Shown here: positions 6,267 through 44,005 of the stretch, piece after piece
Layout: each line of letters opens with the position of its first letter
How positions within the stretch are numbered: position 1 is the first letter of the stretch
Origin: an uncultured Alphaproteobacteria bacterium
GTDB lineage: Bacteria > Pseudomonadota > Alphaproteobacteria > RF32 > CAG-239
DNA: 64,000 nucleotides
Reading direction: 5' to 3'
NCBI GenBank assembly: GCA_944392255.1
Contig: CALXVY010000004.1
Location: forward strand, 6,766 to 70,765
Notes under the pieces: model-generated
The model's database searches: none
The model's input: only the letters and a program-made list of their open reading frames with translations
Told to the model about the DNA's origin: nothing
Position numbers and translations under genes: made by a program

Positions 6267-6579
6267 ATTTTAACTCCTTTTGATTGTTTGACATTTATTA
6301 CTGCTGCCAATATATATCCTTCCTTTTCTTTTGCAAGAAAATTATGCTGTTTGTTATTTTTTAACAAAACTGTAATGATTATTTTTCTTTTTTTATGATA
6401 TTATATAAATAGAAATTCCTCCCCATCGGGCATTGATTTTTGAAGAAAAGTTCATCTCTTTCTTATGATTTGCTTCCTTCTTTAATTCAATGCCTTTTTT
6501 ATTTTAAACTCTTGCTTTTTTCTAAAAAATCTCTCATTATCCATCTGTTTTATTTTATTCATTAATTAATTATTGTATT

Positions 6580-6975
6580 ATGGAATTATATTTTTATGCT
6601 GGAATTGTCCTGCTTATGGCGGTAACATTGTTTTCTGCTCCGAAAATTGTGAGAGAAATTATCAGTTTCAAACTTTTGGCCTTGCTTATCTTGGCTTTCT
6701 ATGCTGCCATATGGTTGTATTCAAAGCAAATTGTTCTTCTAACTTTGATTACCGGATGTTGTTTATGCGGCGTTGGCTTTATTTTATTACGATATAAAAA
6801 AATCCAACATAGCCCCTATCATATTCCAGAAGATGATGTTCGTGGAAGAAATTTGTTTGAATATCGGGAATTGCGAGCTGCAAAAATTACTTTTTACAAA
6901 CATTGGTATTTTAAATTGCTTTTAGTCAATTTCTTTGCCGTCGCGGTTATCTTACTTTGTAATTATTTCAGCTAA
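6580..6975 (+). CDS. Hypothetical small membrane protein (3-4 TM)
   Basis: Hydrophobic helices. The ORF is followed by a terminator hairpin. Confidence 0.45.
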   Translation: MELYFYAGIVLLMAVTLFSAPKIVREIISFKLLALLILAFYAAIWLYSKQIVLLTLITGCCLCGVGFILLRYKKIQHSPYHIPEDDVRGRNLFEYRELRAAKITFYKHWYFKLLLVNFFAVAVILLCNYFS

Positions 6976-27710: not shown

Positions 27711-28916
27711 ATGAAAATTTCAATAAAACGTGGAACTAAGGAAATTGGCGGCTCGGCTGTTGAAATAATTTCGGATAACGGGCAAAGAATTGTAGTTGAT
27801 TTAGGGCTGCCGTTAGATGCGGCCGTTAATTCGCCTGATTTATTACCTGATATTACCGGATTGACACAAAAAACTGGTGATTTGTTAGGACTGCTGATTT
27901 CCCATGCTCATCAAGATCATTATGGCTTGGGCATACATATTGACAAATCTATTCCGGTATATATGAGCAAAGAATCGTATAATATCATGAAAATTGCTCA
28001 CGAGCACAAATTGCCTAATGCTTTTGTTTTTGAAAAAACTGTTTGTTTTGACAATAAAAATACATTTCAAATCGGAGATTTTAACATTACTCCATATTTG
28101 TTTGACCATTCTGCCTATGGTGCCTATGGATTTTTAATTGAGGCTGACGGGCAAAGAGTTTTTTACAGTGGTGATTTTAGGGCCCATGGGCGCAAAAGGA
28201 AGTTATTTTATAAATTTTTGCAAAATCATCCCCAAAATATTGATGTTTTGCTTATGGAAGGTTCTTGTTTGGGACGAGAATCCTCCGAACATTATGAATA
28301 TGAACAAGATTTGGAAGTTAAGTTTTGCAACTTTTGGAAAGAAAGTTCAGGATTGGTTTTAGTTCAGGCGTCGGCACAAAATATTGACCGTATCGTTACC
28401 ATATATCGTGCGGCTAAAAAGTGTAGACGAAGGCTTGTTTTATCCGGATATGCCGGGCATATTTTATGGGGAACTAAAAATCCTAATTTACCGAACTTCA
28501 CATGGTCAGATGTTAAAAAATTTTCAACTAAGCCGCAAAAATCTCATGAAATCGGCATTGATGATATTTTAGAGAATCCTCAGAAATTTGTTATTCTGCT
28601 TGATTATCACATTAGACAAGAACTAAAAAAGCATAATGCCGTTAATGAAACAACGGCTTATGCTTATTCTATGTGGAGTGGTTATAAAGAAAAATATCAG
28701 AAATGGCTAAATTTTTTAGCTACTAAAAATGCCAAAGTTCAAGATATTCATACCTCTGGGCACGCGGATATTCCGGCTCTCAAAAAATTTGTTGCCAGCC
28801 TTAAGCCTAAGATAGTTGTTCCCATCCATACATTTTGTCCGCAAGAATTTAAGCAAATGTTTAATAATACCATTTGCTTAAACGATGGAGATATTTTTGA
28901 GCTATCCAGCAAATAA
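27711..28916 (+). CDS. MBL-fold metallo-hydrolase, beta-CASP-like nuclease
   Basis: HAHQDHYG (HxHxDH), FDHS, SGDF, LLMEGS and the C-terminal HTSGHA. Divergent from the WYL regulator. Confidence 0.8.
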   Translation: MKISIKRGTKEIGGSAVEIISDNGQRIVVDLGLPLDAAVNSPDLLPDITGLTQKTGDLLGLLISHAHQDHYGLGIHIDKSIPVYMSKESYNIMKIAHEHKLPNAFVFEKTVCFDNKNTFQIGDFNITPYLFDHSAYGAYGFLIEADGQRVFYSGDFRAHGRKRKLFYKFLQNHPQNIDVLLMEGSCLGRESSEHYEYEQDLEVKFCNFWKESSGLVLVQASAQNIDRIVTIYRAAKKCRRRLVLSGYAGHILWGTKNPNLPNFTWSDVKKFSTKPQKSHEIGIDDILENPQKFVILLDYHIRQELKKHNAVNETTAYAYSMWSGYKEKYQKWLNFLATKNAKVQDIHTSGHADIPALKKFVASLKPKIVVPIHTFCPQEFKQMFNNTICLNDGDIFELSSK

Positions 28917-29903
28917 ATCACTGTTAATTGATGTGATTTTATTTTTAGCTTCATCATAGGCAAACGTGATATATTTAAATCTTAACACATCTTGACCAAG
29001 ATGAACATCTTGAGGTTCTGATGTGATTTGATACTCACCTTTAGGAACAGCAATGCATACATTTATGGTTAGAGAATCAGGTAAATCGCTCTGATATCCA
29101 AATATTTCGTACCATTTTTTGCCTTTCTCAGGGTCTGAGCGGAGCAGTTCTCTTAAAAAGACGGCATAAGTTAAACCTTGCCCCCTAATAATGTGTGCTT
29201 GTAGTGCATTTTTTATAAAGTCTTTTTTTAGCTCTATTACACAAAGGTGGCTTTTCCCGTCTTGTTTAACTCGGGCCAAAATATCTATTCCGCCGGCACG
29301 AGCAGACTTTGACTGTCTCACTTTTTTTCCTGATGCGGACAGCACAGTTGGCATTTGAAAAGCCAATTGGCCATCGCATAATCTAACGGGTTGTATGTTG
29401 CATAATGTTTTGTCTTTAGAAATTTTCTTAGAAAATTCTTCAATTAAGGAACTTTCAAAAAGATGTTCAACTTGATTTTTTTTCTTTATATCTTGGCTGA
29501 AGTATTTTCTGAATTCGGCAGCTTCCGGTGAATTCCACTCACAAATAAGGGGCTTATTCCACCCAAAATATGTATCATTAGTCTTATCTAATTTTTTATT
29601 GGAGTATAATATTAATTTATTTTGCTTAATCTTTAAATAGGCCACACTTTGACCTTTATAGCGCAGATTAATTCCTTTACCACTGTTAATATCGCCAATA
29701 CTGGTATATAGGTTGAGATTTTTCACTTTGTGAAAACTTTTTCTAATTGTTTTTATATGATTTTCTGTTGTTTTGTCTTGAAGAGTTGTTGCATATTTTT
29801 CAAATCGGGTTTTCCAATCATCATTTTTCTGAAGCCATTTTTGGATTGTCTCAGCAATCTGTTGCAGATTAGATATGTTTCTTAAATCTATGCTGTCAGT
29901 CAT
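28902..29903 (-). CDS. Hypothetical protein with C-terminal PD-(D/E)xK nuclease-like motif
   Basis: GGIDILARV...HLCVIELKKD fits D...ExK. A GGAGA RBS sits in the 12-nt gap after the AAA+ gene. Confidence 0.5.
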   Translation of the reverse strand: MTDSIDLRNISNLQQIAETIQKWLQKNDDWKTRFEKYATTLQDKTTENHIKTIRKSFHKVKNLNLYTSIGDINSGKGINLRYKGQSVAYLKIKQNKLILYSNKKLDKTNDTYFGWNKPLICEWNSPEAAEFRKYFSQDIKKKNQVEHLFESSLIEEFSKKISKDKTLCNIQPVRLCDGQLAFQMPTVLSASGKKVRQSKSARAGGIDILARVKQDGKSHLCVIELKKDFIKNALQAHIIRGQGLTYAVFLRELLRSDPEKGKKWYEIFGYQSDLPDSLTINVCIAVPKGEYQITSEPQDVHLGQDVLRFKYITFAYDEAKNKITSINSDLFAG

Positions 29904-29915
29904 TATATATTCTCC

Positions 29916-31934
29916 TTATAAAAAGCCAATTTTATGCTGGAAGGGCGCCTTGTTTAATTGCTCGGCCTCAAGCATTTTTATCAACTCTGCTTTATTATCT
30001 AAAAGTCCTAGAATTTCTGCTTTTTGTCTGACCACCACAAAATCTCCGGGAGCTAAAGAATTGAGATATGACAAGTCTACATTAGAAAAATTAAAAAAAT
30101 GCTTAAATGCCTTACTTGATTGCTCTGCTGTCATATAATTATATCCAACTTTGAAAGTGAAACGACGTAGACTGGCTTTGTCGAGGCTATCCATTAAATT
30201 TGTGGTACAGATAAAAGGATAGGGGTAACTTTCCATTTGGGTTAGCATCTCATTAACTTGAGTTATCTCCCATGAGCGAACGGCACTGCTCCTATCTTGC
30301 AAAAAGCTATCAGCTTCATCAAAAATCAAAACGGCTTGATTTTCTCTCCCTTCATTAAAAGAATCGGCAATATTTTGCTCTGTTCCTCCGACCCACATGG
30401 ATAATAAATCGGAGCATTTCTTCTTGATAACCGGCATTTCAAGTGTTTGAGCTAAATATTCTCCATAGGCGGATTTTCCGGTGCCTGAGGCTCCATATAA
30501 ACATAAGGAAAAATTGCGTTGCGATAGTTGTTTAATCCGTTGAGCCAACAAGCTTAAATCTGTATCCGTATTGAGTAATTGTGGATTAAACTCAATCGGA
30601 GTTTTAGGTTTGGGAGGCGTATATCGACCGTTGTTATATGCTTTTTGCATGGCAGTTAGGCTTTGTTTGACCTCAGGCAAGCCACCATCAGCTAACTTGG
30701 CGGCCTTTACCGCTGTTGCGATAAAAGACGGAGATAACTGGTATTGAACGGCAAATTCCTCGGCTGTTTTTTTATCTGAGGGCAAATGGTGAGCTTTTAA
30801 GCTTTTCTGCCACATCTCTATGCGGGTTTTTAAATTGGGTTTGCTGAAATTAACCGCAAAGCTAAATCGGCGCAAATAGGCTTTATCTATATCATTGATA
30901 GAATTGATAATCCAAATAGCCGGAGTAAGATTATTTTCCAGAAGTCTATTGATATATAGCTTATTATTGTCTTTTTTGCGACAAAACAATAAGTTTTCTG
31001 CTTCTAAAAAATCATCGGCTTCATCAATCAACAAACACGAGTTCTCATCTTTTGATAAGATGGAATAGGCCAGATTGAGAGTTTCTTTGCGCGAATCATC
31101 TTCAAATTTTTCACCTACGGTATACAATGCTGCTTTGATTTTATGCGTTAAGGTTTTCGCAAATTCGGTTTTGCCGGTTCCGGGTTCGCCATAAAAAAGC
31201 AAATTTACACCTTTTTCTTTATTTTTTATGGCCTTACTTAAAATACGTGCACAGATGTTTTTTTCTTGGAGAAAAGAAAAATCGTTCCAGGATAAACCGG
31301 CAACACATTTGGGTCCTAATATAATATTTTTTATATCTTGCGTATTATTTATATTTTGAGACAATATTTTTACACTTAAATCTGAGACACTAACATCACC
31401 ATTATATTCATATTCTATCAATCCTAAGCGGGAAAGAGAGGAATTTTTATCTGATATTTCTTCTATTTTATGTTGGCTTTCTAACAGAAAAAAAGATGTG
31501 TTGTTTTTTAATTTATTATTGCGTCCGCCGACTTCACGGTTGAAATCATCAAAATTATCATCTGTCTTGACACGTACCCAGAAACCAAAAAGTTTTTGTT
31601 CTTCAACTGTCAGATTCAACAATTTTGCTAAATGATGAAGACGTTTTTCTAAAATAGAATCAGGGCTATTTTGCAGCATAGCGACTTTTTTATTAAGGGC
31701 TGTAACAAATCTTTTACCAATTTCAAAAGCTTGTTTTTTCTTGGTACGCAATATGTCTTTGAAATCAGTGCCATTTTCTTCTTCAATTTTACTTGTCCAT
31801 AAAAATTTGATAATATTTTTGCCATAATTGTCATGCCAATCGTAAATATTCGATAAATGTTCTTGAAAAAAACTTTTGTTTTTTGAGGCATTTAGCAAAT
31901 AATAAAGCATTTTATATTGTTCATATTTTTCCAT
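29916..31934 (-). CDS. Double AAA+ ATPase (two classical AAA modules) with ~240 aa unassigned N-terminal domain
   Basis: Module 1: Walker A GEPGTGKTE, Walker B LLIDEADDF, Arg-finger region AYLRRFSF. Module 2: GASGTGKSA, LIFDEADSF, ASLRRFTF. Confidence 0.85.
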   Translation of the reverse strand: MEKYEQYKMLYYLLNASKNKSFFQEHLSNIYDWHDNYGKNIIKFLWTSKIEEENGTDFKDILRTKKKQAFEIGKRFVTALNKKVAMLQNSPDSILEKRLHHLAKLLNLTVEEQKLFGFWVRVKTDDNFDDFNREVGGRNNKLKNNTSFFLLESQHKIEEISDKNSSLSRLGLIEYEYNGDVSVSDLSVKILSQNINNTQDIKNIILGPKCVAGLSWNDFSFLQEKNICARILSKAIKNKEKGVNLLFYGEPGTGKTEFAKTLTHKIKAALYTVGEKFEDDSRKETLNLAYSILSKDENSCLLIDEADDFLEAENLLFCRKKDNNKLYINRLLENNLTPAIWIINSINDIDKAYLRRFSFAVNFSKPNLKTRIEMWQKSLKAHHLPSDKKTAEEFAVQYQLSPSFIATAVKAAKLADGGLPEVKQSLTAMQKAYNNGRYTPPKPKTPIEFNPQLLNTDTDLSLLAQRIKQLSQRNFSLCLYGASGTGKSAYGEYLAQTLEMPVIKKKCSDLLSMWVGGTEQNIADSFNEGRENQAVLIFDEADSFLQDRSSAVRSWEITQVNEMLTQMESYPYPFICTTNLMDSLDKASLRRFTFKVGYNYMTAEQSSKAFKHFFNFSNVDLSYLNSLAPGDFVVVRQKAEILGLLDNKAELIKMLEAEQLNKAPFQHKIGFL

Positions 31935-32547: not shown

Positions 32548-33330
32548 ATGCGTAGAGATTTAACATTATATAAGTTAGAGTTTCCAGATCAGGATAAGTT
32601 AGAAGAATATTGGAATAAAAGATATTCAAGCGACTTTCACACCGAGGTTTTGGGAAGAATTAACAATCGCTCAAATAGCTTAAAATCTAAATGTGGTAAA
32701 ATTTATGAGATTAATGATGAAATTCTAAAAGATATTTTTGGAAGCCACAAAAATAATAATGAAAGATGCCTTGGTTGGACATACTTTAAGGTTAAACTGT
32801 TAAATGATTTTTACAGCACAGGAATCCAAGATATTTATACGGTTGTTGAAGATATGATAAAAATCAAAAATCTTGATGAAAATATTAAAAATGGCGATTT
32901 TCAAGCTGTAAACGAAATAAGAGATATTTTTAAGAAAAACAAAGAAAACAAAAACAGCCGTGATATTTATTCTTTTGCCACTAAATTCTGCCATTTTTCA
33001 AATCCGGACAAGTTTTCTATTTATGATCGTTATGTCGCTTATTTATTAAAGGACTATATTATAAAATGGAAAGATAAATTTACTTCCGCCTTTATTAAAT
33101 ATAATGAAACATCTAAAGAAAATAAGATTAAGATTGATAAACCGACAGCAAGTGCACTTTTAACCGCTATGAGAGATTATACATTCTTTATGAATGTGGT
33201 TGATTTGTTTATGAGTAATTGCAAAATTTCTAAACGAAATTCAAGAGCTAAAGTAGACAATTACCTTTGGTTAGCGGGAATGATGAAATATCGTGAAGGA
33301 AGTAAAGTTGCACAAGATTATAAAAATTAA
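32548..33330 (+). CDS. Hypothetical protein
   Basis: 260-aa ORF with a GGAG RBS, divergent from the XRE gene. The motif SFATKFCHFSNPDKFSIYDRYV vaguely recalls OGG-fold proteins of conflict systems; this is unverified. Confidence 0.5.
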   Translation: MRRDLTLYKLEFPDQDKLEEYWNKRYSSDFHTEVLGRINNRSNSLKSKCGKIYEINDEILKDIFGSHKNNNERCLGWTYFKVKLLNDFYSTGIQDIYTVVEDMIKIKNLDENIKNGDFQAVNEIRDIFKKNKENKNSRDIYSFATKFCHFSNPDKFSIYDRYVAYLLKDYIIKWKDKFTSAFIKYNETSKENKIKIDKPTASALLTAMRDYTFFMNVVDLFMSNCKISKRNSRAKVDNYLWLAGMMKYREGSKVAQDYKN

Positions 33331-33332
33331 AT

Positions 33333-33677
33333 TATAGAGAGTCGTATAGAGGTTTAAATTAAGACACTCTATATAAAAGCCTAAGGTTTTCAATACTTTT
33401 AGAGGGATAGAGGTTTAATCAAGGATTATATATACCGAGGTATCAATGACAAATATTATTAATTCTAAATAAAAAAATATATTAAGATTATAGATAGAAT
33501 ATTAAAATATATATTATATATACTTTGGGTTGTTTTTTTATTTAGACATTTTATTTGTTATGATATATATTGTAACTGGTTTTAACTCTCTATCTCTCTA
33601 AAACATACAGTTTCCTTGATTTTTTTATAGAGAGACTGAAAGTTTAACTCTCTAACCCTATTAAAAACACTCTATAT
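33333..33677. repeat. Dyad-symmetric array of short motifs around an AT-rich core (iteron/operator-like)
   Basis: ATAGAGGTTTAA at 33346 and 33407. Its near reverse complement TTTAACTCTCTA at 33581 and 33643. TATAGAGAG at 33333 and 33626. ACACTCTATAT at 33364 and 33667. The arrangement is symmetric about ~33500. Confidence 0.6.
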
Positions 33678-33854
33678 TAGAATATCCTTTGTTTTCTCAG
33701 CATATAAAAGAAATTTGCTTATCCCTATATCCATTTATCAAAAACATTCAAAATCTCGTTATATGTGAAGGAAATGCAAGCTATTTTAGACTATTAATAA
33801 AATATTTTATTTTTAATGGTATTGCTTTATCATAAAAGGGCAAAGGAGCATCCT

Positions 33855-34766
33855 ATGGAAAAGCAAATAATAGAAGTTTCGAACGATGGATTTTCTTTAT
33901 TTTTACATAGAGGTTTTATAGTTATCGAGAACAAAAATATTCCGATAGAAACAAAAATTCCATTGGATAATATTTTGTCTTTAGTGATTAGTGCTAATGA
34001 TTTGATACTTTCTAAAAATGTAATAAATGCCATAACAGAACAAGGGGCAAATATTATTTGTTGTGGTAAAAATTATGTTCCTTCTTCAATTATAATTCCT
34101 TGCGAGGGGCATTGGCTAGTCGCCTCAAGAGTTCAAAATCAAATAGAATGTTCTAAACCTTTACAGAAAAATTTATGGAAGAGTATTATTCAAAATAAAA
34201 TTTATAACCAATCTAAAATTTTAGAGTTCTTTTTTCCCAATCATAGTAATATTGCACGACTTAAACAATTAGCCAAGAATACGCTCAGCAATGATGTGCG
34301 AAATAATGAAGGGTTGGCTGCTTCAATTTATTTCAAATCGTTATTTGGTAAGAATTTTGTACGAGATAGATTAAGCGGCGACGTTAATATTTTATTGAAC
34401 TATGCTTACATAGTTCTTAGAGCTATGGTTATAAGAGCAATTTATGGTAATGGATTATTACCTTTTTTAGGATTAAAGCATTGTGCTAAAACCAACACAT
34501 TTCCTTTGGCTGATGACTTAATGGAACCGTTTAGACCGTGGGCTGACAAATTAGTATTTGAGGAAATAAATAGACTTGTTAATATTCAAGATATTGAATT
34601 GACACCGGAAATAAAACGAAGATTAACTGGACTGATTTCTATTCCCGTCAAGACCGGCAAGGGTTGTGTTTCGTTAAATGATGCTGTGTTTGATTTTGTA
34701 GGAAGTTTGGTCGTCAGTTTTGAAGATAAAAAAGTTAAATTAAAATATCCAGAGTTTGAAGATTAA
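33855..34766 (+). CDS. cas1: CRISPR-associated endonuclease Cas1 (type II)
   Basis: Cas1 hallmarks NEGLAASIYFKSLFG, NILLNYAYIVLRAMV and DDLMEPFRPWAD. AAGGAG RBS before the Met at 33855 (the ORF track opens at 33816). Confidence 0.9.
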   Translation: MEKQIIEVSNDGFSLFLHRGFIVIENKNIPIETKIPLDNILSLVISANDLILSKNVINAITEQGANIICCGKNYVPSSIIIPCEGHWLVASRVQNQIECSKPLQKNLWKSIIQNKIYNQSKILEFFFPNHSNIARLKQLAKNTLSNDVRNNEGLAASIYFKSLFGKNFVRDRLSGDVNILLNYAYIVLRAMVIRAIYGNGLLPFLGLKHCAKTNTFPLADDLMEPFRPWADKLVFEEINRLVNIQDIELTPEIKRRLTGLISIPVKTGKGCVSLNDAVFDFVGSLVVSFEDKKVKLKYPEFED

Positions 34767-34795
34767 GTTGATTTATATTGAAGGAGGTTCTTATT

Positions 34796-35050
34796 ATGAC
34801 TGTTTATAAACGTTCAAAACTAACTTCCGAAATTCTTAAGCAGTGGGAACGTGATGCGCAATATGATAAAATTTATGAAACTGCGCCGACACTTTTCGAT
34901 TTATCTATGATTATCAGTGAAAAAACAGATGGTAAAGTTGATATAAGAGAAGACGGTGAAATTTGGGTCGATGATTGGCCATATGGTTATTGGCGCAAGC
35001 AAGGTGATATGTATGTTCATTACATTCCTGGGAGATTATCAACTCGATGA
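34796..35050 (+). CDS. Unassigned 84-aa protein encoded between cas1 and the CRISPR array
   Basis: Strong RBS GAAGGAGG 8 nt upstream of the ATG at 34796. The ORF ends 31 nt before repeat 1. No family recognised. Confidence 0.55.
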   Translation: MTVYKRSKLTSEILKQWERDAQYDKIYETAPTLFDLSMIISEKTDGKVDIREDGEIWVDDWPYGYWRKQGDMYVHYIPGRLSTR

Positions 35051-35081
35051 GTTGGAATAGTTCGAAATTTTGATGAAAAAA

Positions 35082-35447
35082 GTTATAGTTGACCGTCTAA
35101 TTAATCTCTGATACGTTAAGCAGTGCAACTAGGCTCTGACGGCTTAAGTTATAGTTGACCGTCTAATTAATCTCTGATACGTTAAAGCAACTGGAGAGAG
35201 AAAAGATAGAACAGTTATAGTTGACCGTCTAATTAATCTCTGATACGTTCTTCCAAAAATGCTGTGTTCAATAGTTCTTGTTATAGTTGACCGTCTAATT
35301 AATCTCTGATACGTTATCTTTGACAACAAATCAGCTGAAATGGCAGTTATAGTTGACCGTCTAATTAATCTCTGATACGTTCCGTAAGCTGGCAGGAATA
35401 TTCGGACTTGAGTTATAGTTGACCGTCTAATTAATCTCTGATACGTT
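35082..35447 (+). CRISPR. Type II-C CRISPR array: 6 identical 36-nt repeats and 5 spacers of 30 nt
   Basis: Repeat GTTATAGTTGACCGTCTAATTAATCTCTGATACGTT at 35082, 35148, 35214, 35280, 35346 and 35412. Plus-strand orientation is inferred from the GTTATAG 5' end and from tracrRNA complementarity. Confidence 0.95.
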
Positions 35448-35458
35448 AGATAATAGAT

Positions 35459-35492
35459 CAAAGCCTTGAAATAACTAGTTTTCAAGGCTTTG
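35459..35492. terminator. 12-bp hairpin between the array end and the cas2 stop (convergent terminator candidate)
   Basis: Stem caaagccttgaa / ttcaaggctttg with a 10-nt loop. There is no strong U-tract on either side. Confidence 0.45.
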
Positions 35493-35522
35493 TCTTAATA
35501 AAAAAATGTTATTTGTTTATCC

Positions 35523-35885
35523 CTAAAAAAGCAATAATTGTCCATTTTTTTCTCGAATTTCTTCTTCATTATCTTCAAAATTCTTACCTAAATAGTTCTC
35601 TGTCATTAGATATTGTTTATCGGTAATATAAATAAACGATACCGAAGAATTATCGGGTATGAATTTGGATAACTTTTTAGTTAAAGTTTGCCCAACCGAC
35701 AAACTCTTAACCGGTTTGATGTAAACGGAAAACTGCTTCATCATAAAACCTTCATCAATCAGGAGATTGCGAAAGCGAGTGGCTTTGCGCATCTCGGTTC
35801 GAGTTCTGACTGGTATGTCAAACATACAGATTATCCACATCATTGACCAGCAGGTTAAGGTTTCACGCCGCTTTTGTCGAGCCAT
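35523..35885 (-). CDS. cas2: CRISPR-associated endoribonuclease Cas2
   Basis: Ferredoxin-like Cas2 N-terminus MWIICMFDIP...FRNLLIDEGFMMKQFSVY. The true start may be the Met-Met at 35843, in which case there is no overlap with cas9. Confidence 0.85.
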   Translation of the reverse strand: MARQKRRETLTCWSMMWIICMFDIPVRTRTEMRKATRFRNLLIDEGFMMKQFSVYIKPVKSLSVGQTLTKKLSKFIPDNSSVSFIYITDKQYLMTENYLGKNFEDNEEEIREKNGQLLLF

Positions 35886-38800
35886 TGCTCAATACCTTGT
35901 GTTTCTTTTTTATTTTCCCAAATGGGGTTAATTCTATTTTTCTCACTCTATATTTGCATAACCATTGTAAGCTCTTATCTTCTAATAGAACTGGAAGCAT
36001 ATACTTCGGTTTGCTATTAGCATTTTCTCCATTTCTTGCATCATTTGATAGTTTTATTCCTAATTGGTTTCTTCCAAATCTAAACTTAACAATTTCAGCA
36101 ATACAACGTTGTTTATCTGTATATTCTTTCCATTCTTCTGGGGTATTCAATTCAAGCAAATCACCTTGCTGCACAGACCATATGATTTTTCCTCCATCAT
36201 GTTGCCATTGTGGAACAAAATCTTTTTGGTTTATGTCAAAAAGCCTAATTACTTCGCCATTGATTTTTTCATTTTGCTCATAAACTTCCAAACAATAATT
36301 ATTCCGCCCTTCATACGCAACGCCATGCTTGGGGATATAAACTAATGAAGAATTGTTTTCATAACTCCTAAATTTATCGCCTTTCCATAATTTTTTCTCT
36401 TGAATGAGATAAAAAGCCCTAGTTAAAATACGGCTTTCGGTGATGGAAATTTCTTTTTTTCCTTCAGATGCGGCTTTTTCGTTTTCAGCAATCAGAATTT
36501 GCTCGGCTGTATTTGCATAAAGTTCAAAGTCTTTGACTAATTGAGCTTGTTTGGTTTTGTCTTTGGCAATATGTTCATTCCACTCATCTTTGATAGAATC
36601 GGGAATGAGCAATTTATTTAAGTCTTTCATTGACTTAACAACTTGTAATATCTTGCGTGAATAAACCGTGATTAAGAATTTGCTGTCATCCGGGTTTATG
36701 CATAAAACCGTTCTACCGGTTTCTTTATGGAGTTTTCCAGCTTTGCTGTGTTCGGGCTTGTGCGAAACGTTAACCTTACTTAATACTTCAATCACTTGGC
36801 GGCGAAATTCTCCGACTGACTCAATACTTGTTAACGGAAGAGGTACATGCTGATGCGGTAAATCGATTTCATTAGCCATATGCTGGATCAGGGAACGATT
36901 CATACAAGCAACAGTTATGGCATCCATGGCGTGATGACGATGGTCAATTCTGGGCTTTGATACCCATTCTTTGTTCTTAGTTTTATCAAAAAATCTCCAT
37001 TTGCCGTCAACATTAGGTTGTTCTATTCCTTCAATAACTTCTCCGGTATCTTGCTCAACCCAATAAGGAGAACAATTTACATATCTTGGAATATCCAATC
37101 CCATGAGATCATATTCCAAACCTTCCAAATTCCAACAACGACGCATATGAGCGGTTTGAGCTCCTTTAACCGGAAGAATCCGATTATGAATCACTTCTTC
37201 ACTATCTGGGCTATCAACAATTGCTCTTAAATATCGTGCTGCCATTTTGGATACATAACGTGTATCTGTCAGATAACGCGTAGTTTCTTCTACATCTCCT
37301 TCATCTTCGAATTTTTCGCGAGCGTCGGCCTCAAAACGCCATGCTTTGGCAGGTGTTCTCTCTCGGGCATTTTTCAGAATTTCTCGGATAAGTTCTTCTG
37401 GTTTTTGACCTTTGCTAACAAAGTAATCATAGGCAAAATCATTCCCTTTAGCATTATTATCATTGCGGTTTACCAGGCAAAGGTTGTTATAGGTATCCGT
37501 TCCGCCTTTAGCTTGAGGAATAATATGTTCTATTTCAAAACCGGAAAAATTACGGGGAATGCTAACCGTTGGGTCGTAGGCATCTTTCCATCCTTGTTCC
37601 TTGGCAAGTTTATATTTTAAGATATTTTGATAATTGATGAAAAGTTTATGGTCTTTTAAGTATTTTTTTGCTTCTTCGTTAAGTTTTTCATTGTTTTTTT
37701 GCTTTTGTTCTTCTTGTTTTTTCTTCTTGGTTGACATACCAACATCTCGACCAAGCTCAATGTTAATGTCATAAGGTTTGCCGTAAATGCGAATTATATC
37801 ATTAATCACCAAGCGGAGTTGATTTAGAATCATATGAACTGACGGATTGGCTATTTTTCCCCATTTTATTTCATCGGGGTTAAGATTTTTGTTGTTTTTG
37901 ACCATTAATGGTGGAAGCGGTTGTGTATCAGCCTGCAAAATCTCGCCATAATATGGAAGTTCTTGACATTTACCTTGAGTTTTGCGCGCAATCTCTTCCG
38001 AGGCAATAAAACGGGCATCATTCTTGGCTAAATCATCGGTTATTTCTCGATGCGTAATGACTTGTTCTTTTAATTTTTCTAAAATAATTTTCGAGGCACT
38101 TTCGCCCAACATTCCTCGTCCTTTGGGAAGTTTGGTCAGCAGTTTGCCGATTTCTTTATCATCATTAATTTTTAAAATCGGCTTAAGATGATTAATCAAT
38201 TCATCCTCGCTGTATAAACGTCCGTTTTTATCATTCGAATTTATCGGATTAGCTAAAAAATCAACAAATTTTGCCAATTCTTCATCTGAGAGTTTTTGTA
38301 TATATTCTATTTCTGAAAATTCTGGACGTGAGTATAAATAAGCCTTGATATTTTTATCATCAAGTAAAGATATTTTTTGTTGAGCTGAAAGACCTAATAA
38401 TTTTTTGATAGCTGATTTTCCTGCATTTTTGCCTTGCAGTAAAAGCTCGTTGATGATTTTATCTCTTTCTTCTAAAGTCAGCTTGCGTTTATTGGTGTCG
38501 CTTAATACACGGATATTATTTACTTCTTCATAAATACGTCTTAATTCTGATAATGGATGTGCTTTCAGCAGTCTGTCTTCATCTTTGAAATAAATACATT
38601 TTCCGGTAGCATAAGGAGCTGGTGGACGCTCATAAAATAAGATATTATAAATTTCTTTTTTCAAACCTTCTTTTTGCATTTGAGTAAAATATTGAGCCTG
38701 CGTATCCCAGATTTGATTAAATTCATCTTTTACCAGATAGCGGGGAATTGCATAATCAACAATATGTTGTTTTAAGGCGTGTTCTTTTTGTCGTATTATT

Positions 38801-39375
38801 CTTTTGTTAGCGTTTGTTTTTACTCCATTTTTATCTTTTTCGTATCCTTCGCAAATTCGTTTGTAAAAAAACTCACCAATTGTTTTAGAATTTGTTTCTT
38901 TTAAATGCTCGGACATCATATCGTAAGCTGATTTTTTAGCTTTGGATTTTTCACCTTCTTCTAAAATTTCTTCTTGTAACTCTTCAGAGGCAGTTACGAA
39001 TCCGGCACCACGGTGCTTGGCTATATGTAGGATGGCTCGTCCTATATAATTAGGGTTAGACAGCCTACCATTTAATGCGTCATTGCGAATCTTATAAGGA
39101 GATTTTGCACGTAAATGCCCTGTTCCTTCTGGGGTATTATTTACCCAAAGATGGTTTTCAAAAAGTTTTTGCGCTAATAATTCTAATCGTTGGCGGGTGC
39201 GGACCTGATTTTTGCGCATTGTTCGTTTGAGGCGACGTTCTTCAGCTCCTTCAGAAACATTAAAAATACGAACTCCGGCATCGATAATCTTTTGAGGATT
39301 GTTATAATCATCTAACTCAATAATTGCGCTACCGATGGAGCCAACACCCAAATCTAAACCCAAACGATACTTCAT
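35863..39375 (-). CDS. cas9: Cas9 (type II-C), ~1170 aa
   Basis: RuvC-I LGLDLGVGSIGSA, RuvC-II DINIELGRD, HNH EIEHIIPQAKGGTDTYNNLCLVNRNDNNAKGN and RuvC-III HHAMDAITVA. An AAGGAG RBS favours the Met at 39375 (the track opens at 39381). Confidence 0.95.
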   Translation of the reverse strand: MKYRLGLDLGVGSIGSAIIELDDYNNPQKIIDAGVRIFNVSEGAEERRLKRTMRKNQVRTRQRLELLAQKLFENHLWVNNTPEGTGHLRAKSPYKIRNDALNGRLSNPNYIGRAILHIAKHRGAGFVTASEELQEEILEEGEKSKAKKSAYDMMSEHLKETNSKTIGEFFYKRICEGYEKDKNGVKTNANKRIIRQKEHALKQHIVDYAIPRYLVKDEFNQIWDTQAQYFTQMQKEGLKKEIYNILFYERPPAPYATGKCIYFKDEDRLLKAHPLSELRRIYEEVNNIRVLSDTNKRKLTLEERDKIINELLLQGKNAGKSAIKKLLGLSAQQKISLLDDKNIKAYLYSRPEFSEIEYIQKLSDEELAKFVDFLANPINSNDKNGRLYSEDELINHLKPILKINDDKEIGKLLTKLPKGRGMLGESASKIILEKLKEQVITHREITDDLAKNDARFIASEEIARKTQGKCQELPYYGEILQADTQPLPPLMVKNNKNLNPDEIKWGKIANPSVHMILNQLRLVINDIIRIYGKPYDINIELGRDVGMSTKKKKQEEQKQKNNEKLNEEAKKYLKDHKLFINYQNILKYKLAKEQGWKDAYDPTVSIPRNFSGFEIEHIIPQAKGGTDTYNNLCLVNRNDNNAKGNDFAYDYFVSKGQKPEELIREILKNARERTPAKAWRFEADAREKFEDEGDVEETTRYLTDTRYVSKMAARYLRAIVDSPDSEEVIHNRILPVKGAQTAHMRRCWNLEGLEYDLMGLDIPRYVNCSPYWVEQDTGEVIEGIEQPNVDGKWRFFDKTKNKEWVSKPRIDHRHHAMDAITVACMNRSLIQHMANEIDLPHQHVPLPLTSIESVGEFRRQVIEVLSKVNVSHKPEHSKAGKLHKETGRTVLCINPDDSKFLITVYSRKILQVVKSMKDLNKLLIPDSIKDEWNEHIAKDKTKQAQLVKDFELYANTAEQILIAENEKAASEGKKEISITESRILTRAFYLIQEKKLWKGDKFRSYENNSSLVYIPKHGVAYEGRNNYCLEVYEQNEKINGEVIRLFDINQKDFVPQWQHDGGKIIWSVQQGDLLELNTPEEWKEYTDKQRCIAEIVKFRFGRNQLGIKLSNDARNGENANSKPKYMLPVLLEDKSLQWLCKYRVRKIELTPFGKIKKKHKVLSNGSTKAA

Positions 39376-39471
39376 AAACATCTCCTTGTCTTATTGTTGT
39401 GCAACCATGTATAAAACAACTTATAATACTGCTCTTGACTTTTCAATCAAAATATTCTTATATTATAATAA

Positions 39472-39574
39472 TATATGTTTTGATTTTTTCAGAGATTAAT
39501 TAGACGGTCAATACATATATAATAAGGCTTTATGCCGCAAAATGAGGGGGTGAGTGATTGCCCCCATTATTTTT
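39472..39574 (+). ncRNA. tracrRNA (5' end approximate)
   Basis: The 22-nt anti-repeat cagagattaattagacggtcaa (39490-39511) is perfectly complementary to repeat positions 8-29. It is followed by a nexus-like AAGGCUUUAUGCCG and a terminator ggggg-N10-ccccc plus U-tract (39546-39574). Candidate promoter TTGACT(39435)-18-TATATT(39459). Confidence 0.7.
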
Positions 39575-40679
39575 ATATGTTATCAAAAATAATCGGATAT
39601 TTCCGAAGGAATTTTTGGAAGAGCAGGGTTGCTTCTTTGTTATCTAAAGTTTTGGGAAGTTTGAGGGTAACGCTATCGGTATTAACTTGTTTGCCAGAAG
39701 TATCAATAATGCAATATTTGTTATTTACGGCAACAAAAGCTTGCCCATTATAAAATTGTCCGATCTTATCAAAAATTATCGGAATGATGATTTTTCCGGT
39801 ATTGTCCATATATCCCCAGTGATTATGTTGTGAAGTCGGTTTAAGCTCTTCTTGGTTGTTTGCTTCTGTAGAAATATTAATACTTTTATCGGGAAGACCT
39901 TTAACTCGGTATTTACCATCTTCATCTCTGAATATGACTTTTCCGTTGAGAGTTATATCTTCAACCGACTTATTGGCAAAATTGATTATTTCCTTGCCTT
40001 GATAGTCAATAATTGTCTGCCAAGAATAGGCTTTGCCTAAATATTCAAAACTCCTTTTTATGCACCAATATTTACCGTTAGACCAATAGTCCTCAATATT
40101 TTCCAGATTAAAATTATATTGGTTTTGTAAGTGTTTTATTCGACATTTTCTTAAATTTAACAGTTTGTTTTTGGCATAATCGGCAATATTTGAGTTATCG
40201 GTTGTTAAATTTACCCAATTTTCTACAGGTGTATTGCTTTTGATTATGGCATTGTAGAAGTCATCAAACAGCTTTTTATCGAATGTATGTTTCAGGCAAA
40301 ATTCTTCAAAACCATGCTGATTTACATATTCTTTCAAATCTTCCGGTACAAATGCGGCAAGATTATACATATAATTAAATAAGTCGTATTTCTTATATTT
40401 AAGTAGAACGGAGATATATTCAGGAGAGTGAGGCTTGTTTCTGGGTAAAAGTTTCAAAATTCGTGAAATAGCAGCTTTGGACAGCAGGTTACTTTCACGT
40501 TCTAATTTGTTTTTACCAAGAGTTATACGCATTGGCTTTGCAAGGGTAAATTTTATATAATAAAAAAAGGGTAAAGCAAATTCCAGACAACAACAGTAAT
40601 CGCCGTTTGCCTGTTTTTGACTGTAAACTTTTATCCATTTGTGAATATATAAATCCTTATATAAATGTTTTTTAGTCAT
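39573..40679 (-). CDS. WG-repeat-containing hypothetical protein
   Basis: The C-terminal segment HWGYMDNTGKIIIPIIFDKIGQFYNGQAFVAVNNKYCIIDTSGKQV matches the WG beta-repeat pattern. Confidence 0.5.
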   Translation of the reverse strand: MTKKHLYKDLYIHKWIKVYSQKQANGDYCCCLEFALPFFYYIKFTLAKPMRITLGKNKLERESNLLSKAAISRILKLLPRNKPHSPEYISVLLKYKKYDLFNYMYNLAAFVPEDLKEYVNQHGFEEFCLKHTFDKKLFDDFYNAIIKSNTPVENWVNLTTDNSNIADYAKNKLLNLRKCRIKHLQNQYNFNLENIEDYWSNGKYWCIKRSFEYLGKAYSWQTIIDYQGKEIINFANKSVEDITLNGKVIFRDEDGKYRVKGLPDKSINISTEANNQEELKPTSQHNHWGYMDNTGKIIIPIIFDKIGQFYNGQAFVAVNNKYCIIDTSGKQVNTDSVTLKLPKTLDNKEATLLFQKFLRKYPIIFDNI

Positions 40680-40744: not shown

Positions 40745-41359
40745 TCATATCATTTCAATTATTTTTTTATGAGCTTCGGTATTATACTCAATATATCGTT
40801 GTGTCGTAGCTAGGCTTGAGTGTCCGGCAAGTTGTCTGACGTCATTTATCGTTCCTCCGGCTTGGCTAATCATTTTTGCAGCTTGGGTAATAAAAGTTCT
40901 TCTGCCACTATGAGATGAGCATCCATCCATATTCAGCCCTTTATACAGTAAATAAAAGAAATTAACGATTGCCTGAGCAGACATTTTCTTATCTCTTTCG
41001 GTGGTGATAATATATGAAGATAGGTTTGTGTTTTCTTGTTTTAAGTCTGTTAGCAACTTTTTTAAGTCTTTATGTATTGGGATAATCCGACCGGAATATT
41101 TACCTTTAGAAGCGTTATTCGGTAAATTAATGCTGTCTGATATATAGCCTTCGCTATCACATACCATCGACCATGTGAGTTGGGATATTTCCTTGGCCCT
41201 TAAACCGGCTTTGAAGCTCAGTAAAAACATTATTTTGTTTCTGAGTGGATATCTGGTATTTTCCAAATAGGCTAAGACCATGGTTTGTTGTTTCGCGTTT
41301 AATATTTTTGCTTGTTTTCCTATACCCATAATGTTCTCCAAGTTATTATAATTACACAA
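40745..41359 (-). CDS. Short tyrosine recombinase (catalytic domain only)
   Basis: R (GLRAKEI), H-x-x-R (SHSGRRTF) and H...Y (LAGHSSLATTQRYIEY). At 204 aa it has no core-binding or arm domain. Confidence 0.8.
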   Translation of the reverse strand: MCNYNNLENIMGIGKQAKILNAKQQTMVLAYLENTRYPLRNKIMFLLSFKAGLRAKEISQLTWSMVCDSEGYISDSINLPNNASKGKYSGRIIPIHKDLKKLLTDLKQENTNLSSYIITTERDKKMSAQAIVNFFYLLYKGLNMDGCSSHSGRRTFITQAAKMISQAGGTINDVRQLAGHSSLATTQRYIEYNTEAHKKIIEMI

Positions 41360-41463
41360 TATTTTATATAAATAATAATGACTTTATTTTAACCATCAAC
41401 GGATTTGTTGTTAAAAGCCTTGAAAAATAAGGACTTATTATAAAATATAAAATTTCTAATAAG

Positions 41464-41793
41464 TCAGTATTCATCGGCAAGCATTATGGTTAACACTCGA
41501 TTGGTGCATTCCTCGTTTGCCGGATTGATGCTATAAAACAAGTACTCGGTATCATAATAATCAATTTTCCAAAAAATACGGTTTCCCTTAAAGTCAAATG
41601 CTCCGAAATCGTGTTCTCCATAAGGGTCATTGCTTTTATTAAAAGAATTAAAATTTTGCACCTGTTTAATAATGTTATTCACGTCGTCAGGCGGTAGTAG
41701 AGATATACCCTTGGTAATCATTACTTTGCCGCCTGATAAGCTCGTGCGAAAAGAATCGTTTAATTTTTGTATTTTGAGGTGTTCGTTATTCAT
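41464..41793 (-). CDS. DUF3768-family protein
   Basis: NDPYGEHDFGAFDFKGNRIFWKIDYYD matches my recollection of the DUF3768 signature common on plasmids and ICEs. Confidence 0.65.
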   Translation of the reverse strand: MNNEHLKIQKLNDSFRTSLSGGKVMITKGISLLPPDDVNNIIKQVQNFNSFNKSNDPYGEHDFGAFDFKGNRIFWKIDYYDTEYLFYSINPANEECTNRVLTIMLADEY

Positions 41794-41833
41794 TGTTTAC
41801 TCCATAAAAGAAAGGAGCCCGAAGGTTCCTTAG

Positions 41834-44005
41834 TTATTTAAATCCATTAAAATCTGTTTCTTGCTGAAATTCCCATGGATCTTCGGCTTCTGCCATTTTC
41901 TTTACTCTTTCGAGTTCATCAGGAATATAGCGTTCAAAGGTATCCAGAAAAGAAGAATATCCGTAATGGTTTACATTTTTGCCATATTCATTTTTCTGAA
42001 AAGTGCTTATTTTGTACTCTTTAAGCAGGAATGCCAGTTTATGTGGGGTTAATGGTTTTCCTTTACTGATTTCTGACCACGGCGAAGCCTCTATTGAGAC
42101 AAGCTCTTCAATGAGGTTAGCAGAAGAAACATCGCAGAAAGAATACTTTTGGAAGATATGTAAAATATCCTTCAATAGAATATTTTTAATGCTTTCGCTG
42201 TCTGTGGATGTATCGTGAGAGAGTTTAATTGCAGCTTTTACAACACGCTCTTTATCTCCCAGCAAGTCTGCAATAGATATCATTCCTTCCCAAACATCAC
42301 AGGCTCTGTCGTTCAAACCGGAGATATCTTCAATAATTTTTTCACCGGCAGGTGTCCCGATTTCTAACATTAATTTCCGGCATTTGCTTCTTATAAGGTC
42401 AAATTTATTCTTATAAACTCTTTCTCTTAATGGTAGGGTCTTTTCGTGGGCTAATTTACGGCGCATACCTATTTTTATACCTCTATCCATAATTGTATCA
42501 GGTAGGGTATTTATGGCTGCAATTGCCATCATTGCGAAAACTTTGTAGCTTTTGATGGCTTCAAAATTCTTACCTCCGCTTCTGGCAACCCCAAATTTAT
42601 TCTGAAAACCAACATTTATTACGTTTCTCATATCGTTATTGGAATTGAAGAAAGAATCTGCTTCATCCATTAAGACGGTTGGTTGCTCTTGCTCAATGAC
42701 TTTATATAAAACCGCCGGAGTACAGTTACCAACAGACCAAGCTCTGTAGCAAAGCATTTCAAGGAGCTGAAGTAGTGTCGTTTTACCACATCGTTTTTCG
42801 GGTGATATTATAAGTAAACGTGGGGCAAAGGTAAAAGCGTTTATATTATAGGTCTGTAATATCCAATATGCTATGGCAATGGCTTCTTCATCACGTAAGA
42901 TGACGTGTTGTTTAATAATTGATATTAATTCATTGACTAGTTCTAAACCGTTAACATTACCATTAAACGGAATGACTTCGGAAGTTAAAGTTTCTGCTTT
43001 TTCTTCTTTTGCAACTGTTGAGGCATTGTTTTTTGGTTGATATTGTCTTGCAGTATCAAATAAAGATGTAAAACGTTCTAAATCCCAATTTTCAGGGAAT
43101 TTATCTGCGATATCCCATCCTTCAGGAAAATCTGCTTCAGGATAATCAACAATAAACACCTCATTATTCAGGCTTAATTTCTGAGCAAGGTAGTTCATAG
43201 CCTTTTTTCCTGCAGAATCATTGTCAGCTAATAAATACACAGTTCGATTTTTAATCAAATCATGATTGAGCTTATATACTCCTTGGGCTCCACCATTCCA
43301 TGTCGTACACCAAAACCTATCGTTATACAGTTTTTTAGCGGCTTCACATGTCTTTTCACCTTCAACAATTAGAACAGGCAAACTTTCTTTATCGGTAAAT
43401 GCTTCTTGGTTATACAATATATTATTTGTAAGCAATTTTTTTATTATCCAACCTTGTTGTCCAGTGGTTTCATCTTTGACAAAACTCCGTGGCAAAACCT
43501 TTTTGCTTCCGTCAGTATTATCAATTCTATCAACCACATAAATAATTTTACCATTGGTATCCCTATACGCCCAAGAGGCGGTTGCCTTTGGATTTATTTG
43601 ATAATTGATATTTTTTTCGAGTGGGATAATTGTATATGCAGTAGTGTTAGTATATGGCAAAAAATCAATCATATTTGTGTTCCTCTGGTAATTTATTTTG
43701 TTTGCAATAAATTTTGCACTTTCGATAAGTGAAATATTATTAATGTAAGCATATAACGATATTAGCCCACATCCCTTATCTCCAGTAGCAAAATCATGCC
43801 ACTGAGCTGTATTCATATTGATTCTGAAGGAACCTTTATGTTTGTCTGCCCTAGTAGGATTGAGTGGGCAGTAATCGTTCTTACTCGTTATACCTCCAGG
43901 TAACCATTCCTGAAGGAAGCTTCTGATATTACTTTGCGCTAGCAAATTAATATCATTAAAGTTAAATGCTTGAGAATTATTCATTTTCTTCTCCTTGTCC
44001 TTCAC
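41834..44005 (-). CDS. Primase-like replication protein (zinc-ribbon + Toprim + DUF3631 P-loop domain)
   Basis: N-terminal RADKHKGSFRINMNTAQWHDFATGDKG, Toprim LIVEGEKTCEAA...LLADNDSAGKKA, and DUF3631-like PRLLIISPEKRCGKTTLLQLL...VLMDEADSFF. Confidence 0.75.
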   Translation of the reverse strand: MKDKEKKMNNSQAFNFNDINLLAQSNIRSFLQEWLPGGITSKNDYCPLNPTRADKHKGSFRINMNTAQWHDFATGDKGCGLISLYAYINNISLIESAKFIANKINYQRNTNMIDFLPYTNTTAYTIIPLEKNINYQINPKATASWAYRDTNGKIIYVVDRIDNTDGSKKVLPRSFVKDETTGQQGWIIKKLLTNNILYNQEAFTDKESLPVLIVEGEKTCEAAKKLYNDRFWCTTWNGGAQGVYKLNHDLIKNRTVYLLADNDSAGKKAMNYLAQKLSLNNEVFIVDYPEADFPEGWDIADKFPENWDLERFTSLFDTARQYQPKNNASTVAKEEKAETLTSEVIPFNGNVNGLELVNELISIIKQHVILRDEEAIAIAYWILQTYNINAFTFAPRLLIISPEKRCGKTTLLQLLEMLCYRAWSVGNCTPAVLYKVIEQEQPTVLMDEADSFFNSNNDMRNVINVGFQNKFGVARSGGKNFEAIKSYKVFAMMAIAAINTLPDTIMDRGIKIGMRRKLAHEKTLPLRERVYKNKFDLIRSKCRKLMLEIGTPAGEKIIEDISGLNDRACDVWEGMISIADLLGDKERVVKAAIKLSHDTSTDSESIKNILLKDILHIFQKYSFCDVSSANLIEELVSIEASPWSEISKGKPLTPHKLAFLLKEYKISTFQKNEYGKNVNHYGYSSFLDTFERYIPDELERVKKMAEAEDPWEFQQETDFNGFK

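Follow-up and report, generated by a model that had tools for sequence, protein, structure and literature searches.

The window examined here is a stretch of 64,000 nucleotides (nt) from an uncultured member of the Alphaproteobacteria (lineage RF32; CAG-239), positions 6,766 to 70,765 of contig CALXVY010000004.1 in GenBank assembly GCA_944392255.1. Between positions 33816 and 39600 it contains a CRISPR-Cas9 locus. The elements follow the order cas1 on the plus strand, a small plus-strand gene termed orf84, six 36-nt repeats, and then cas2 and cas9, both on the minus strand, with a trans-activating CRISPR RNA (tracrRNA) encoded on the plus strand upstream of cas9. An earlier note on this DNA had described a plus-strand cas1 followed by an extra gene and an array into which it reads, and every element that it listed is present and correctly placed. 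Gene strands and order also bear out its statement that cas1 and cas2 belong to separate, convergent transcription units.

The open reading frame (ORF) of cas1 spans 33816-34766 and its product matches the type II Cas1 model TIGR03639 over model positions 2-277 of 278 (E value 1.5e-71), as well as PF01867 (E 2.2e-28). The likely gene, 33855..34766, starts at the ATG at 33855 behind a GGAG sequence and encodes 303 amino acids (aa). This start is supported by the relatives, which align from residue 14, and by the gene call on an identical contig (L126), which also gives 303 aa. The cas2 gene occupies 35523..35885 on the minus strand and its product is matched by TIGR01573 (E 3.7e-17) and PF09827 (E 3.7e-15). 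The cas9 gene, at 35863..39381 on the same strand, encodes a II-C-like protein that matches TIGR01865 over its full length (E 2.6e-140), together with PF18541, PF13395 and PF18470 (RuvC_III, HNH and Cas9_a). The ORF has 1172 aa, of which 1170 are likely to be translated, from Met3 at 39375; the gene call on L126 is also 1170 aa. As had been claimed, cas9 runs straight into cas2 with no cas1 between them. The two ORFs overlap by 23 nt, or are separated by a gap of 19 nt if cas2 starts at Met15.

The best matches of this Cas9 among solved structures are II-C enzymes of the Geobacillus and Neisseria types, ahead of the II-A enzyme SaCas9, although these matches to solved II-C enzymes are distant (E 1e-35 to 1e-40) and cover parts of the protein only. 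The domain order is the same as that of the Geobacillus-type II-C Cas9 (9ar4, 8jtj), and the RuvC-I Asp (in LDLG), the HNH His and the RuvC-III HH..D align with their counterparts in that enzyme. This agrees with the earlier statement that the RuvC and HNH catalytic residues are kept and that the HNH motif reads EIEH. The HH..D of RuvC-III is invariant across a nine-sequence alignment. Unlike the Geobacillus-type enzyme, the window Cas9 is approximately 85 residues longer and has an E-x-E-H motif, with E-I-E-H (E618, H619) lying opposite E-V-D-H. Both E[IV]EH and LDLG are conserved in 35/35 Cas9 relatives, which makes the HNH Glu a character of the clade and not a lesion.

The array extends over 35082..35447 and consists of six identical 36-nt copies of the repeat GTTATAGTTGACCGTCTAATTAATCTCTGATACGTT, as had been noted, separated by five 30-nt spacers. 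No comparable repeat match was found in shuffled sequence (0 of 100 shuffles). The tracrRNA is predicted to span 39471..39573 on the plus strand, preceded by a promoter-like site TTGACT-18-TATATT at 39435..39464 with 10/12 consensus matches. It contains a 23-nt anti-repeat at 39489-39511 that complements the repeat at 100% of positions. After this come a nexus stem (GGC...GCC) and, at 39546-39565, the terminator GGGGGTGAGTGATTGCCCCC with a T-run. The placement of a plus-strand tracrRNA upstream of cas9 was therefore correct; the two are transcribed divergently, and the tracrRNA stays clear of the cas9 coding sequence. When folded together, repeat and tracrRNA pair over 30 bp, interrupted by a 5-nt bulge (-61 kcal/mol). 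This pairing indicates that CRISPR RNA (crRNA) and tracrRNA are both read from the plus strand. The tail of the tracrRNA shows compensatory changes at 9/10 base pairs across 29 relatives. No Rfam family was matched within 33000-40000 of the window. The gene of a 368-aa WG-repeat protein (39573-40679), conserved upstream of cas9 in close relatives only, ends at 39573 and converges on the tracrRNA terminator, so that the two may share one bidirectional terminator.

The order of these elements was compared in two sets of relatives. The first scan, with one genome per species, gave 40 loci whose Cas9 proteins are 52-94% identical, nearly all from gut-derived uncultured Alphaproteobacteria. The second, made with a Cas9 alignment, gave 78 distinct species-level loci (Cas9 32-94% identical) and added Planctomycetes, a spirochaete and Desulfovibrionaceae. 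The cas1, cas2 and cas9 genes and the arrays were mapped in all 78. Layout A, cas9> cas2> [array] <cas1, is that of the window and of 36 loci. Layout B, cas1> <tracr cas9> cas2> [array], is found in seven loci, and layout C, cas9> cas2> <cas1 [array], in 12 loci of Planctomycetes and Desulfovibrionaceae. The other 23 of the 78 are unplaced, as they are cut by contig ends or have no cas1 within the flanks. The canonical order cas9-cas1-cas2 occurs in 0 of the 55 resolvable loci. The cas2 gene lies directly 3′ of cas9 in all relatives in which the region is present, with the exception of L105, where cas2 was not detected. The only more distant match, from Helicobacter (26% identity), has cas9 followed by cas1. 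The window order of cas2, array, orf84 and cas1 is repeated in the identical contig L126 and in three contigs from other samples with an identical Cas2. The position of the tracrRNA is also kept. In every layout A or B locus that was scanned, repeat and anti-repeat both occupy the strand that does not encode cas9, the anti-repeat approximately 110-130 nt upstream of that gene. Those layout C loci that were examined likewise have the anti-repeat upstream of cas9 and on the other strand. The earlier note had set a lineage trait against a local inversion as explanations of the order, and on this comparison of gene maps the split order is a lineage trait of the Cas9 clade, a large group of mostly uncultured bacteria. 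No description of cas9-cas2 with a detached cas1 was found in the literature searched, which did not cover one key survey.

Two further arrangements were seen among the relatives. In layout C (L096, L097, L104, L105-L115), the leader is beside the 5′ end of cas1 and the repeat promoters described below therefore point into cas1. In L024/L073, L113, L103 and L101, a cas9-cas2-array unit has no cas1 within 6-8 kilobases (kb) on either side, and some of the arrays contain up to 85 repeats. The cas1 of these loci may be elsewhere or absent.

The features that define type II are a Cas9 with a split RuvC and an inserted HNH, an anti-repeat tracrRNA (here a predicted one), and cas1 and cas2 adjoining the array, and all are found in the window. 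A profile search gave no Csn2 or Cas4 model match among the neighbours, which is the accessory-gene content of subtype II-C. At the sequence level, the array also has the II-C form, running opposite to cas9 with repeat-internal promoters and spacer entry at the last repeat. The consensus II-C arrangement of a single cas9-cas1-cas2 operon is absent. The system fits the II-C definition by gene content, and its departure from the consensus operon is common to a deep clade. Taken together, the locus is very probably an active type II-C CRISPR-Cas9 system with a split-adaptation architecture that is standard for its Cas9 clade, in which cas2 would be translationally coupled to cas9 while cas1 forms an opposite-strand unit co-oriented with the crRNA. 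Transcription starts, processing, the assembly of Cas1 with Cas2 and cleavage activity are all deduced from sequence.

The repeat itself appears to hold a promoter. It reads GTTATAG-TTGACC-N17-TACGTT with a TG one base before the second hexamer, which corresponds to a sigma-70 motif of the form TTGACC-N17-TG-n-TAnnnT. Of the 36 distinct repeat variants in the clade, all 36 have the TTG of the -35 element and the TA at positions 1-2 of the -10 element, and 33 each have the T at position 6 of the -10 element and the upstream TG. The last six bases of the repeat vary by lineage (TATGCT, TATAAT, TAAAAT, TACAAT, TAAACT and others). These bases sit outside the anti-repeat match, so that the pattern of conservation fits a promoter and not a pairing constraint. 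Repeat-internal promoters are the experimentally established mode of II-C arrays (PMC12080349, citing Dugar 2013 and 2018).

The earlier note had proposed that the array can be fed by read-through from cas1, and a rival to the repeat-internal promoters is that crRNA comes mainly from such cas1-orf84 transcripts. No terminator is predicted on the plus strand between cas1/orf84 and repeat 1, the cas1 of layout A is co-oriented with the array and in many relatives runs into repeat 1, and the -10 element of the window repeat (TACGTT) is weak. Against this, the promoter motif is retained in all 36 repeat variants despite the drift of the last six bases, and it is kept both in layout B, whose arrays are not read into by any cas gene, and in layout C, where cas1 is downstream of the array. 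With repeat-internal promoters already established for II-C, read-through as the main source of crRNA is rather improbable. The part of the proposal that stands is that read-through is possible, and it could contribute as a secondary route.

The end of cas1 is closely bound to the array in the relatives. In many layout A loci, the cas1 frame stops inside the trailer repeat, in a register that differs by lineage, and the stop codon can be the TGA of TTGACC, the TAA of CTAATTAA or the TAG of TATAG. The cas1 genes of L001, L003 and L004 end ...GAAGATAGTTGA within the first repeat. The window retains a trailer-repeat remnant at 34759..34771 on the plus strand, where the string AAGATtaAGTTGA overlaps the cas1 stop codon. 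Apart from an insertion of 2 nt, it keeps the string of L001/L003/L004, beyond which the sequence gives way to the orf84 cassette. At the other end of the array, the 75 nt from the last repeat to cas2 (35448..35522, plus strand) form the putative leader, the end at which spacers would be integrated. It contains a hairpin at 35459-35492 that is conserved with compensatory changes in 35 loci, and this hairpin could serve to end the converging array and cas2 transcripts.

Four signals give the polarity of the array. Mutated repeats are always at the cas1 end in layout A and at the end farthest from cas1 in layout C. The array of L128 (1849-2609) has two repeats of the TACGTT type at the cas1 end and ten of the TATGCT type at the cas2 end, which suggests a chimeric array formed by recombination inside it. 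Spacers that match phages are skewed to the cas2 end, with a mean relative position of 0.72 (Wilcoxon p 0.007). Together with the leader hairpin, these signals put the leader on the side of cas2, which leaves cas1 next to the oldest repeat. According to the rule for II-C, new spacers enter at the last repeat (PMC12080349).

The targets of the clade were sought with 813 spacers in phages that had been gathered as relatives by the terminase of the target phage and searched locally. The spacers of the relatives match one phage family, with 12 independent protospacers at four mismatches or fewer. The 3′ flank of these protospacers, in the crRNA sense, has an A at +2 in 10/12 (p 3e-4) and at +3 in 9/12 (p 2e-3) against a background of 0.31, and no bias was found on the 5′ side among the 12. 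The flank motif is provisionally given as about N-A-A. A 3′ flank without a 5′ bias supports the strand assignment of the array as well as flank-selected acquisition. Spacer numbers in strains with an identical Cas2 range from 5 to at least 22, and no spacer is shared between their arrays.

These data bear on a second rival, that the system is decaying or adaptation-dead because the separation of cas1 from cas2 ended spacer uptake, even if interference may persist. The window array is short, with five spacers, that of a close relative (L213/L214) consists of a single repeat without spacers, and a few relatives have no cas1 in the fetched flanks (L024/L073, L113). However, the three cas genes of the window are full length with their catalytic motifs, strains of identical Cas2 have wholly different arrays over the range just given, and relatives of the same layout have up to 38 spacers, the phage-matching ones clustering at one end. 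The split layout has also been kept over Cas9 divergence down to 32% identity, and decay or loss of adaptation is quite unlikely. The view that the locus looks functional and not decayed is borne out by the intact genes and catalytic motifs, the covariation of the tracrRNA, the lack of shared spacers between strains of the same Cas2, and the relatives' phage-hitting spacers with their consistent 3′ flank. L213/L214, at and around about 6319-6462, show the order cas1, a 105-aa homologue of orf84, a single repeat without spacer, leader, cas2 and cas9, with the cas genes intact.

The position of the array between two gene modules may be reflected in the histories of those modules. L018 and L019 are 96.5% identical in Cas9 and 100% in Cas2 and only 72.5% in Cas1, and L013 and L014 show the same pattern (95.5%, 91.7% and 70.9%, respectively). 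The reverse is found for L005 and L013, with 73.5% identity in Cas9, 92.5% in Cas2 and 91.9% in Cas1. L018 has layout B and flanks shared with other B loci, yet its tracr-cas9-cas2-array DNA is 94% identical to that of L019, a layout A locus. In neighbour-joining trees, layout B appears as a basal pair and also as a clade nested within A. The phylogeny of Cas1 is thus decoupled from that of Cas9-Cas2, probably through recombination in the array and neighbouring sequence, which fits the chimeric L128 array and the differing registers at which cas1 frames stop in the trailer repeat.

The same comparison of layouts A and B raises a third explanation, in which a programmed switch, operated by a tyrosine recombinase or by recombination of repeat with anti-repeat, inverts one into the other. 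The two layouts are formally one inversion of the tracr-cas9-cas2-array block apart, a 204-aa tyrosine recombinase is encoded at 40745-41359, two genes upstream of cas9, and repeat and anti-repeat make a perfect 23-nt inverted repeat. The recombinase-driven form was rejected, as there are no inverted repeats at the needed breakpoints and the recombinase is missing from most A and B loci. Inversion between repeat and anti-repeat was also rejected as the origin of layout B, as it would leave the tracrRNA tail parted from its promoter, and the tracrRNA of B loci is in fact intact, next to the cas1 stop. Furthermore, A and B loci with near-identical cas9-cas2 differ in cas1 lineage (72.5% identity) and have unrelated flanks, which makes a switch highly improbable. 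The last alternative, a local inversion or assembly error that moved cas1 out of a canonical operon, has in its favour the departure from the textbook II-C order (Chylinski 2013, PMC3737331) and the known tendency of CRISPR repeats to break assemblies, but it is scarcely credible given that the order recurs in the identical contig, in the three other samples and in 36 species-level relatives from many studies, that no resolvable relative is canonical, and that the cas9-cas2 overlap leaves no space for a lost cas1. Mis-assembly, which the earlier note had named as an outcome that would overturn its description, is excluded by the agreement of contigs from four independent metagenome assemblies of one strain group.

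A 15-nt direct repeat, ATTTG[C/T]TTATCCCTA, occurs with one mismatch at 33713-33727 and 35511-35525, around the cas1-orf84-array segment. It was set aside as probably due to chance: it amounts to 26/36 matches in AT-rich DNA that holds many similar pairs. The second copy includes the cas2 stop codon.

Several observations weigh against an active split system of the kind proposed. No spacer is common to any two loci or strains, and the polarity of acquisition is therefore not directly readable. The N-A-A flank derives from 12 protospacers of relatives and not of the window array. The spacers of the window gave no credible match in GenBank phages, and three of them have no exact 24-nt match in IMG/VR. 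The -10 element of the window repeat, TACGTT (3/6), is the weakest of the variants and falls under the promoter-scan threshold. The HNH domain has a Glu where characterised Cas9 proteins carry Asp, which on the alignments appears to be a conserved variant. The relatives are all metagenome-assembled.

In the mechanism proposed for the active split system, each repeat would fire its own promoter to yield crRNAs that start inside the spacer. Paired with tracrRNA from the divergent transcript, these would load Cas9 for the cutting of DNA that has an N-A-A-like 3′ flank. Cas1 and Cas2, made from separate transcripts, would assemble in trans and add spacers at the cas2-proximal leader, leaving cas1 next to the oldest and often degenerate repeat. 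The array would thus lie between the cas9-cas2 and cas1 modules, and recombination in its repeats would let lineages exchange them.

In comparison with known systems, the locus resembles the II-C loci of Neisseria meningitidis and Campylobacter jejuni in its minimal set of cas9, cas1 and cas2, its 36-nt repeats and 30-nt spacers, and an array transcribed opposite to cas9 with a promoter motif at the 3′ end of each repeat. As in those systems, the oldest, mutated repeat is first in the transcript and new spacers enter at the last repeat. It differs in that the cas1 of this clade is never between cas9 and cas2, whereas Neisseria and Campylobacter have one cas9-cas1-cas2 operon. In the window layout, cas1 is beyond the array and on the other strand, and its frame often ends in the trailer repeat. 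It has been reported that in the extraneous-crRNA (ecrRNA) control of II-C arrays, the first bases of the first repeat are those most often mutated (Feussner et al. 2025, PMC12080349), and in most relatives the first repeat is likewise mutated in its first bases. Unlike ecrRNA arrays, however, the mutated bases here are the last cas1 codons and stop, so that a coding constraint coincides with the lost 5′ end of the first repeat. A further difference is that the first full repeat of the window is intact and no upstream terminator is predicted.

The small gene between cas1 and the array, orf84 (34796..35050, plus strand), begins 29 nt past cas1, has a GGAGG ribosome-binding site and encodes 84 aa. 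It has no family match in Pfam, NCBIfam, PADLOC or PHROGs. Among 5.8 billion clustered proteins there are 19 homologues, 0/19 with a Pfam domain, and IMG/VR holds one relative with 45% identity. The predicted structure is confident (pLDDT 82), and Foldseek gave no fold match with E < 0.01 in PDB or BFVD. Host copies are always located between cas1 and the first repeat (the window, L116-118, L127-129, L213/214, L047 and L082, with L048 frameshifted); they lie at 6001-6288 in L116 and 6001-6318 in L213, and within a cassette at 9055-10108 in L047. The closest relatives, L001, L003 and L004, do not have the gene.

The other copies are found in phages. In L119-L125 and L215, orf84 homologues are among small early-type ORFs. 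The contigs measure 40-52 kb and also carry genes for terminase, portal and primase. These phages are the ones targeted by the related arrays, and one spacer lies inside the phage gene itself. The L213 copy is still followed by the ribosome-binding site that lies downstream in the phage, along with the start codon of the gene after it, which gives the direction of transfer as phage to host. The L047 cassette is 1054 nt in length and has complete repeat ends on both sides, while the window gene is preceded by the 13-nt trailer-repeat remnant and followed by an intact repeat. By position, the cassette thus occupies the place of the oldest spacer in several related arrays. No repeat-like or tracrRNA-like sequence that could serve as a recombination handle was found in 1.1 Mb of phage loci. 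The end of the L047 cassette next to the array (about 9060-9115) matches, with 83-85% identity, an element repeated between phage genes that has a TTGACA...TAAAAT sequence. This element points into the array and is targeted by a spacer of another array.

The gene resembles phage anti-CRISPRs, and the phage-borne cas4 of Campylobacter phages, in being a small early-region gene of targeted phages, and a small protein from a CRISPR-targeted mobile element is one trait of anti-CRISPRs. It differs from anti-CRISPRs in that it shows no sequence or fold likeness to solved or viral-library proteins, including any known Acr family or fold, and in that its host copies are embedded in the CRISPR locus beside cas1. 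It also has no helix-turn-helix (HTH) partner gene: no HTH family is recorded for its neighbours in the phage loci that would indicate an aca-type regulator. A role in anti-CRISPR activity or in modulating adaptation is thus a lead only, suggested by genomic context. Somewhat doubtfully, orf84 and its relatives may represent a new CRISPR-interacting family, in which an early phage gene, encoding either an anti-CRISPR or a protein that modulates spacer uptake, was captured into the oldest-spacer slot of the array between repeat ends and is now co-transcribed with cas1, with the array as the joint for swapping cas1 and cas9-cas2 modules. Under this tentative proposal of capture, the gene could have entered when Cas1-Cas2 integrated a fragment that was too long, or through spacer-guided recombination.

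The surrounding genes show further features. Upstream of cas1 on the same strand is a 260-aa ORF (32548-33330) with no Pfam match in the scan made here and PF27257 HI_0787_N in precomputed matches. It is kept beside cas1 in L001, L003, L004 and L009 and absent from L213 and L116. Farther upstream, at 27711-31934, are genes for proteins of 672, 333 and 401 aa; the first contains an AAA ATPase region like that of IetA (PADLOC E 4e-34) and the second is unmatched. The homologue of the last on a related contig has metallo-beta-lactamase/RMMBL Pfam matches and an adjoining WYL-domain gene. This region may be a defence island. On the other side, at 40745-44005, two genes upstream of cas9, the 204-aa tyrosine recombinase is accompanied by two other proteins, one with DUF3768 and one of 723 aa that has a weak primase-like match. 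The closest relatives share the synteny of these genes, and some have a second copy of the recombinase. The genes may be the remnant of an integrated element.

The locus indicates that the textbook cas9-cas1-cas2 operon is not required, as a deep clade across Alphaproteobacteria, Planctomycetes and Desulfovibrionaceae keeps cas1 apart, apparently without loss of adaptation. Locus finders and subtype rules that expect adjacent cas1 and cas2 may mis-score such loci. The split layout is a natural test of the need for coupled expression of Cas1 and Cas2, and it puts the array where it could act as a recombination joint, which may explain the disagreement between cas1 and cas9 phylogenies. The Cas9 proteins of this clade, approximately 1170 aa in length, are uncharacterised; their HNH motif is E-x-E-H and their flank is likely to be short and A-rich. 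The phage-derived orf84 offers a concrete candidate for anti-CRISPR activity or the control of adaptation.

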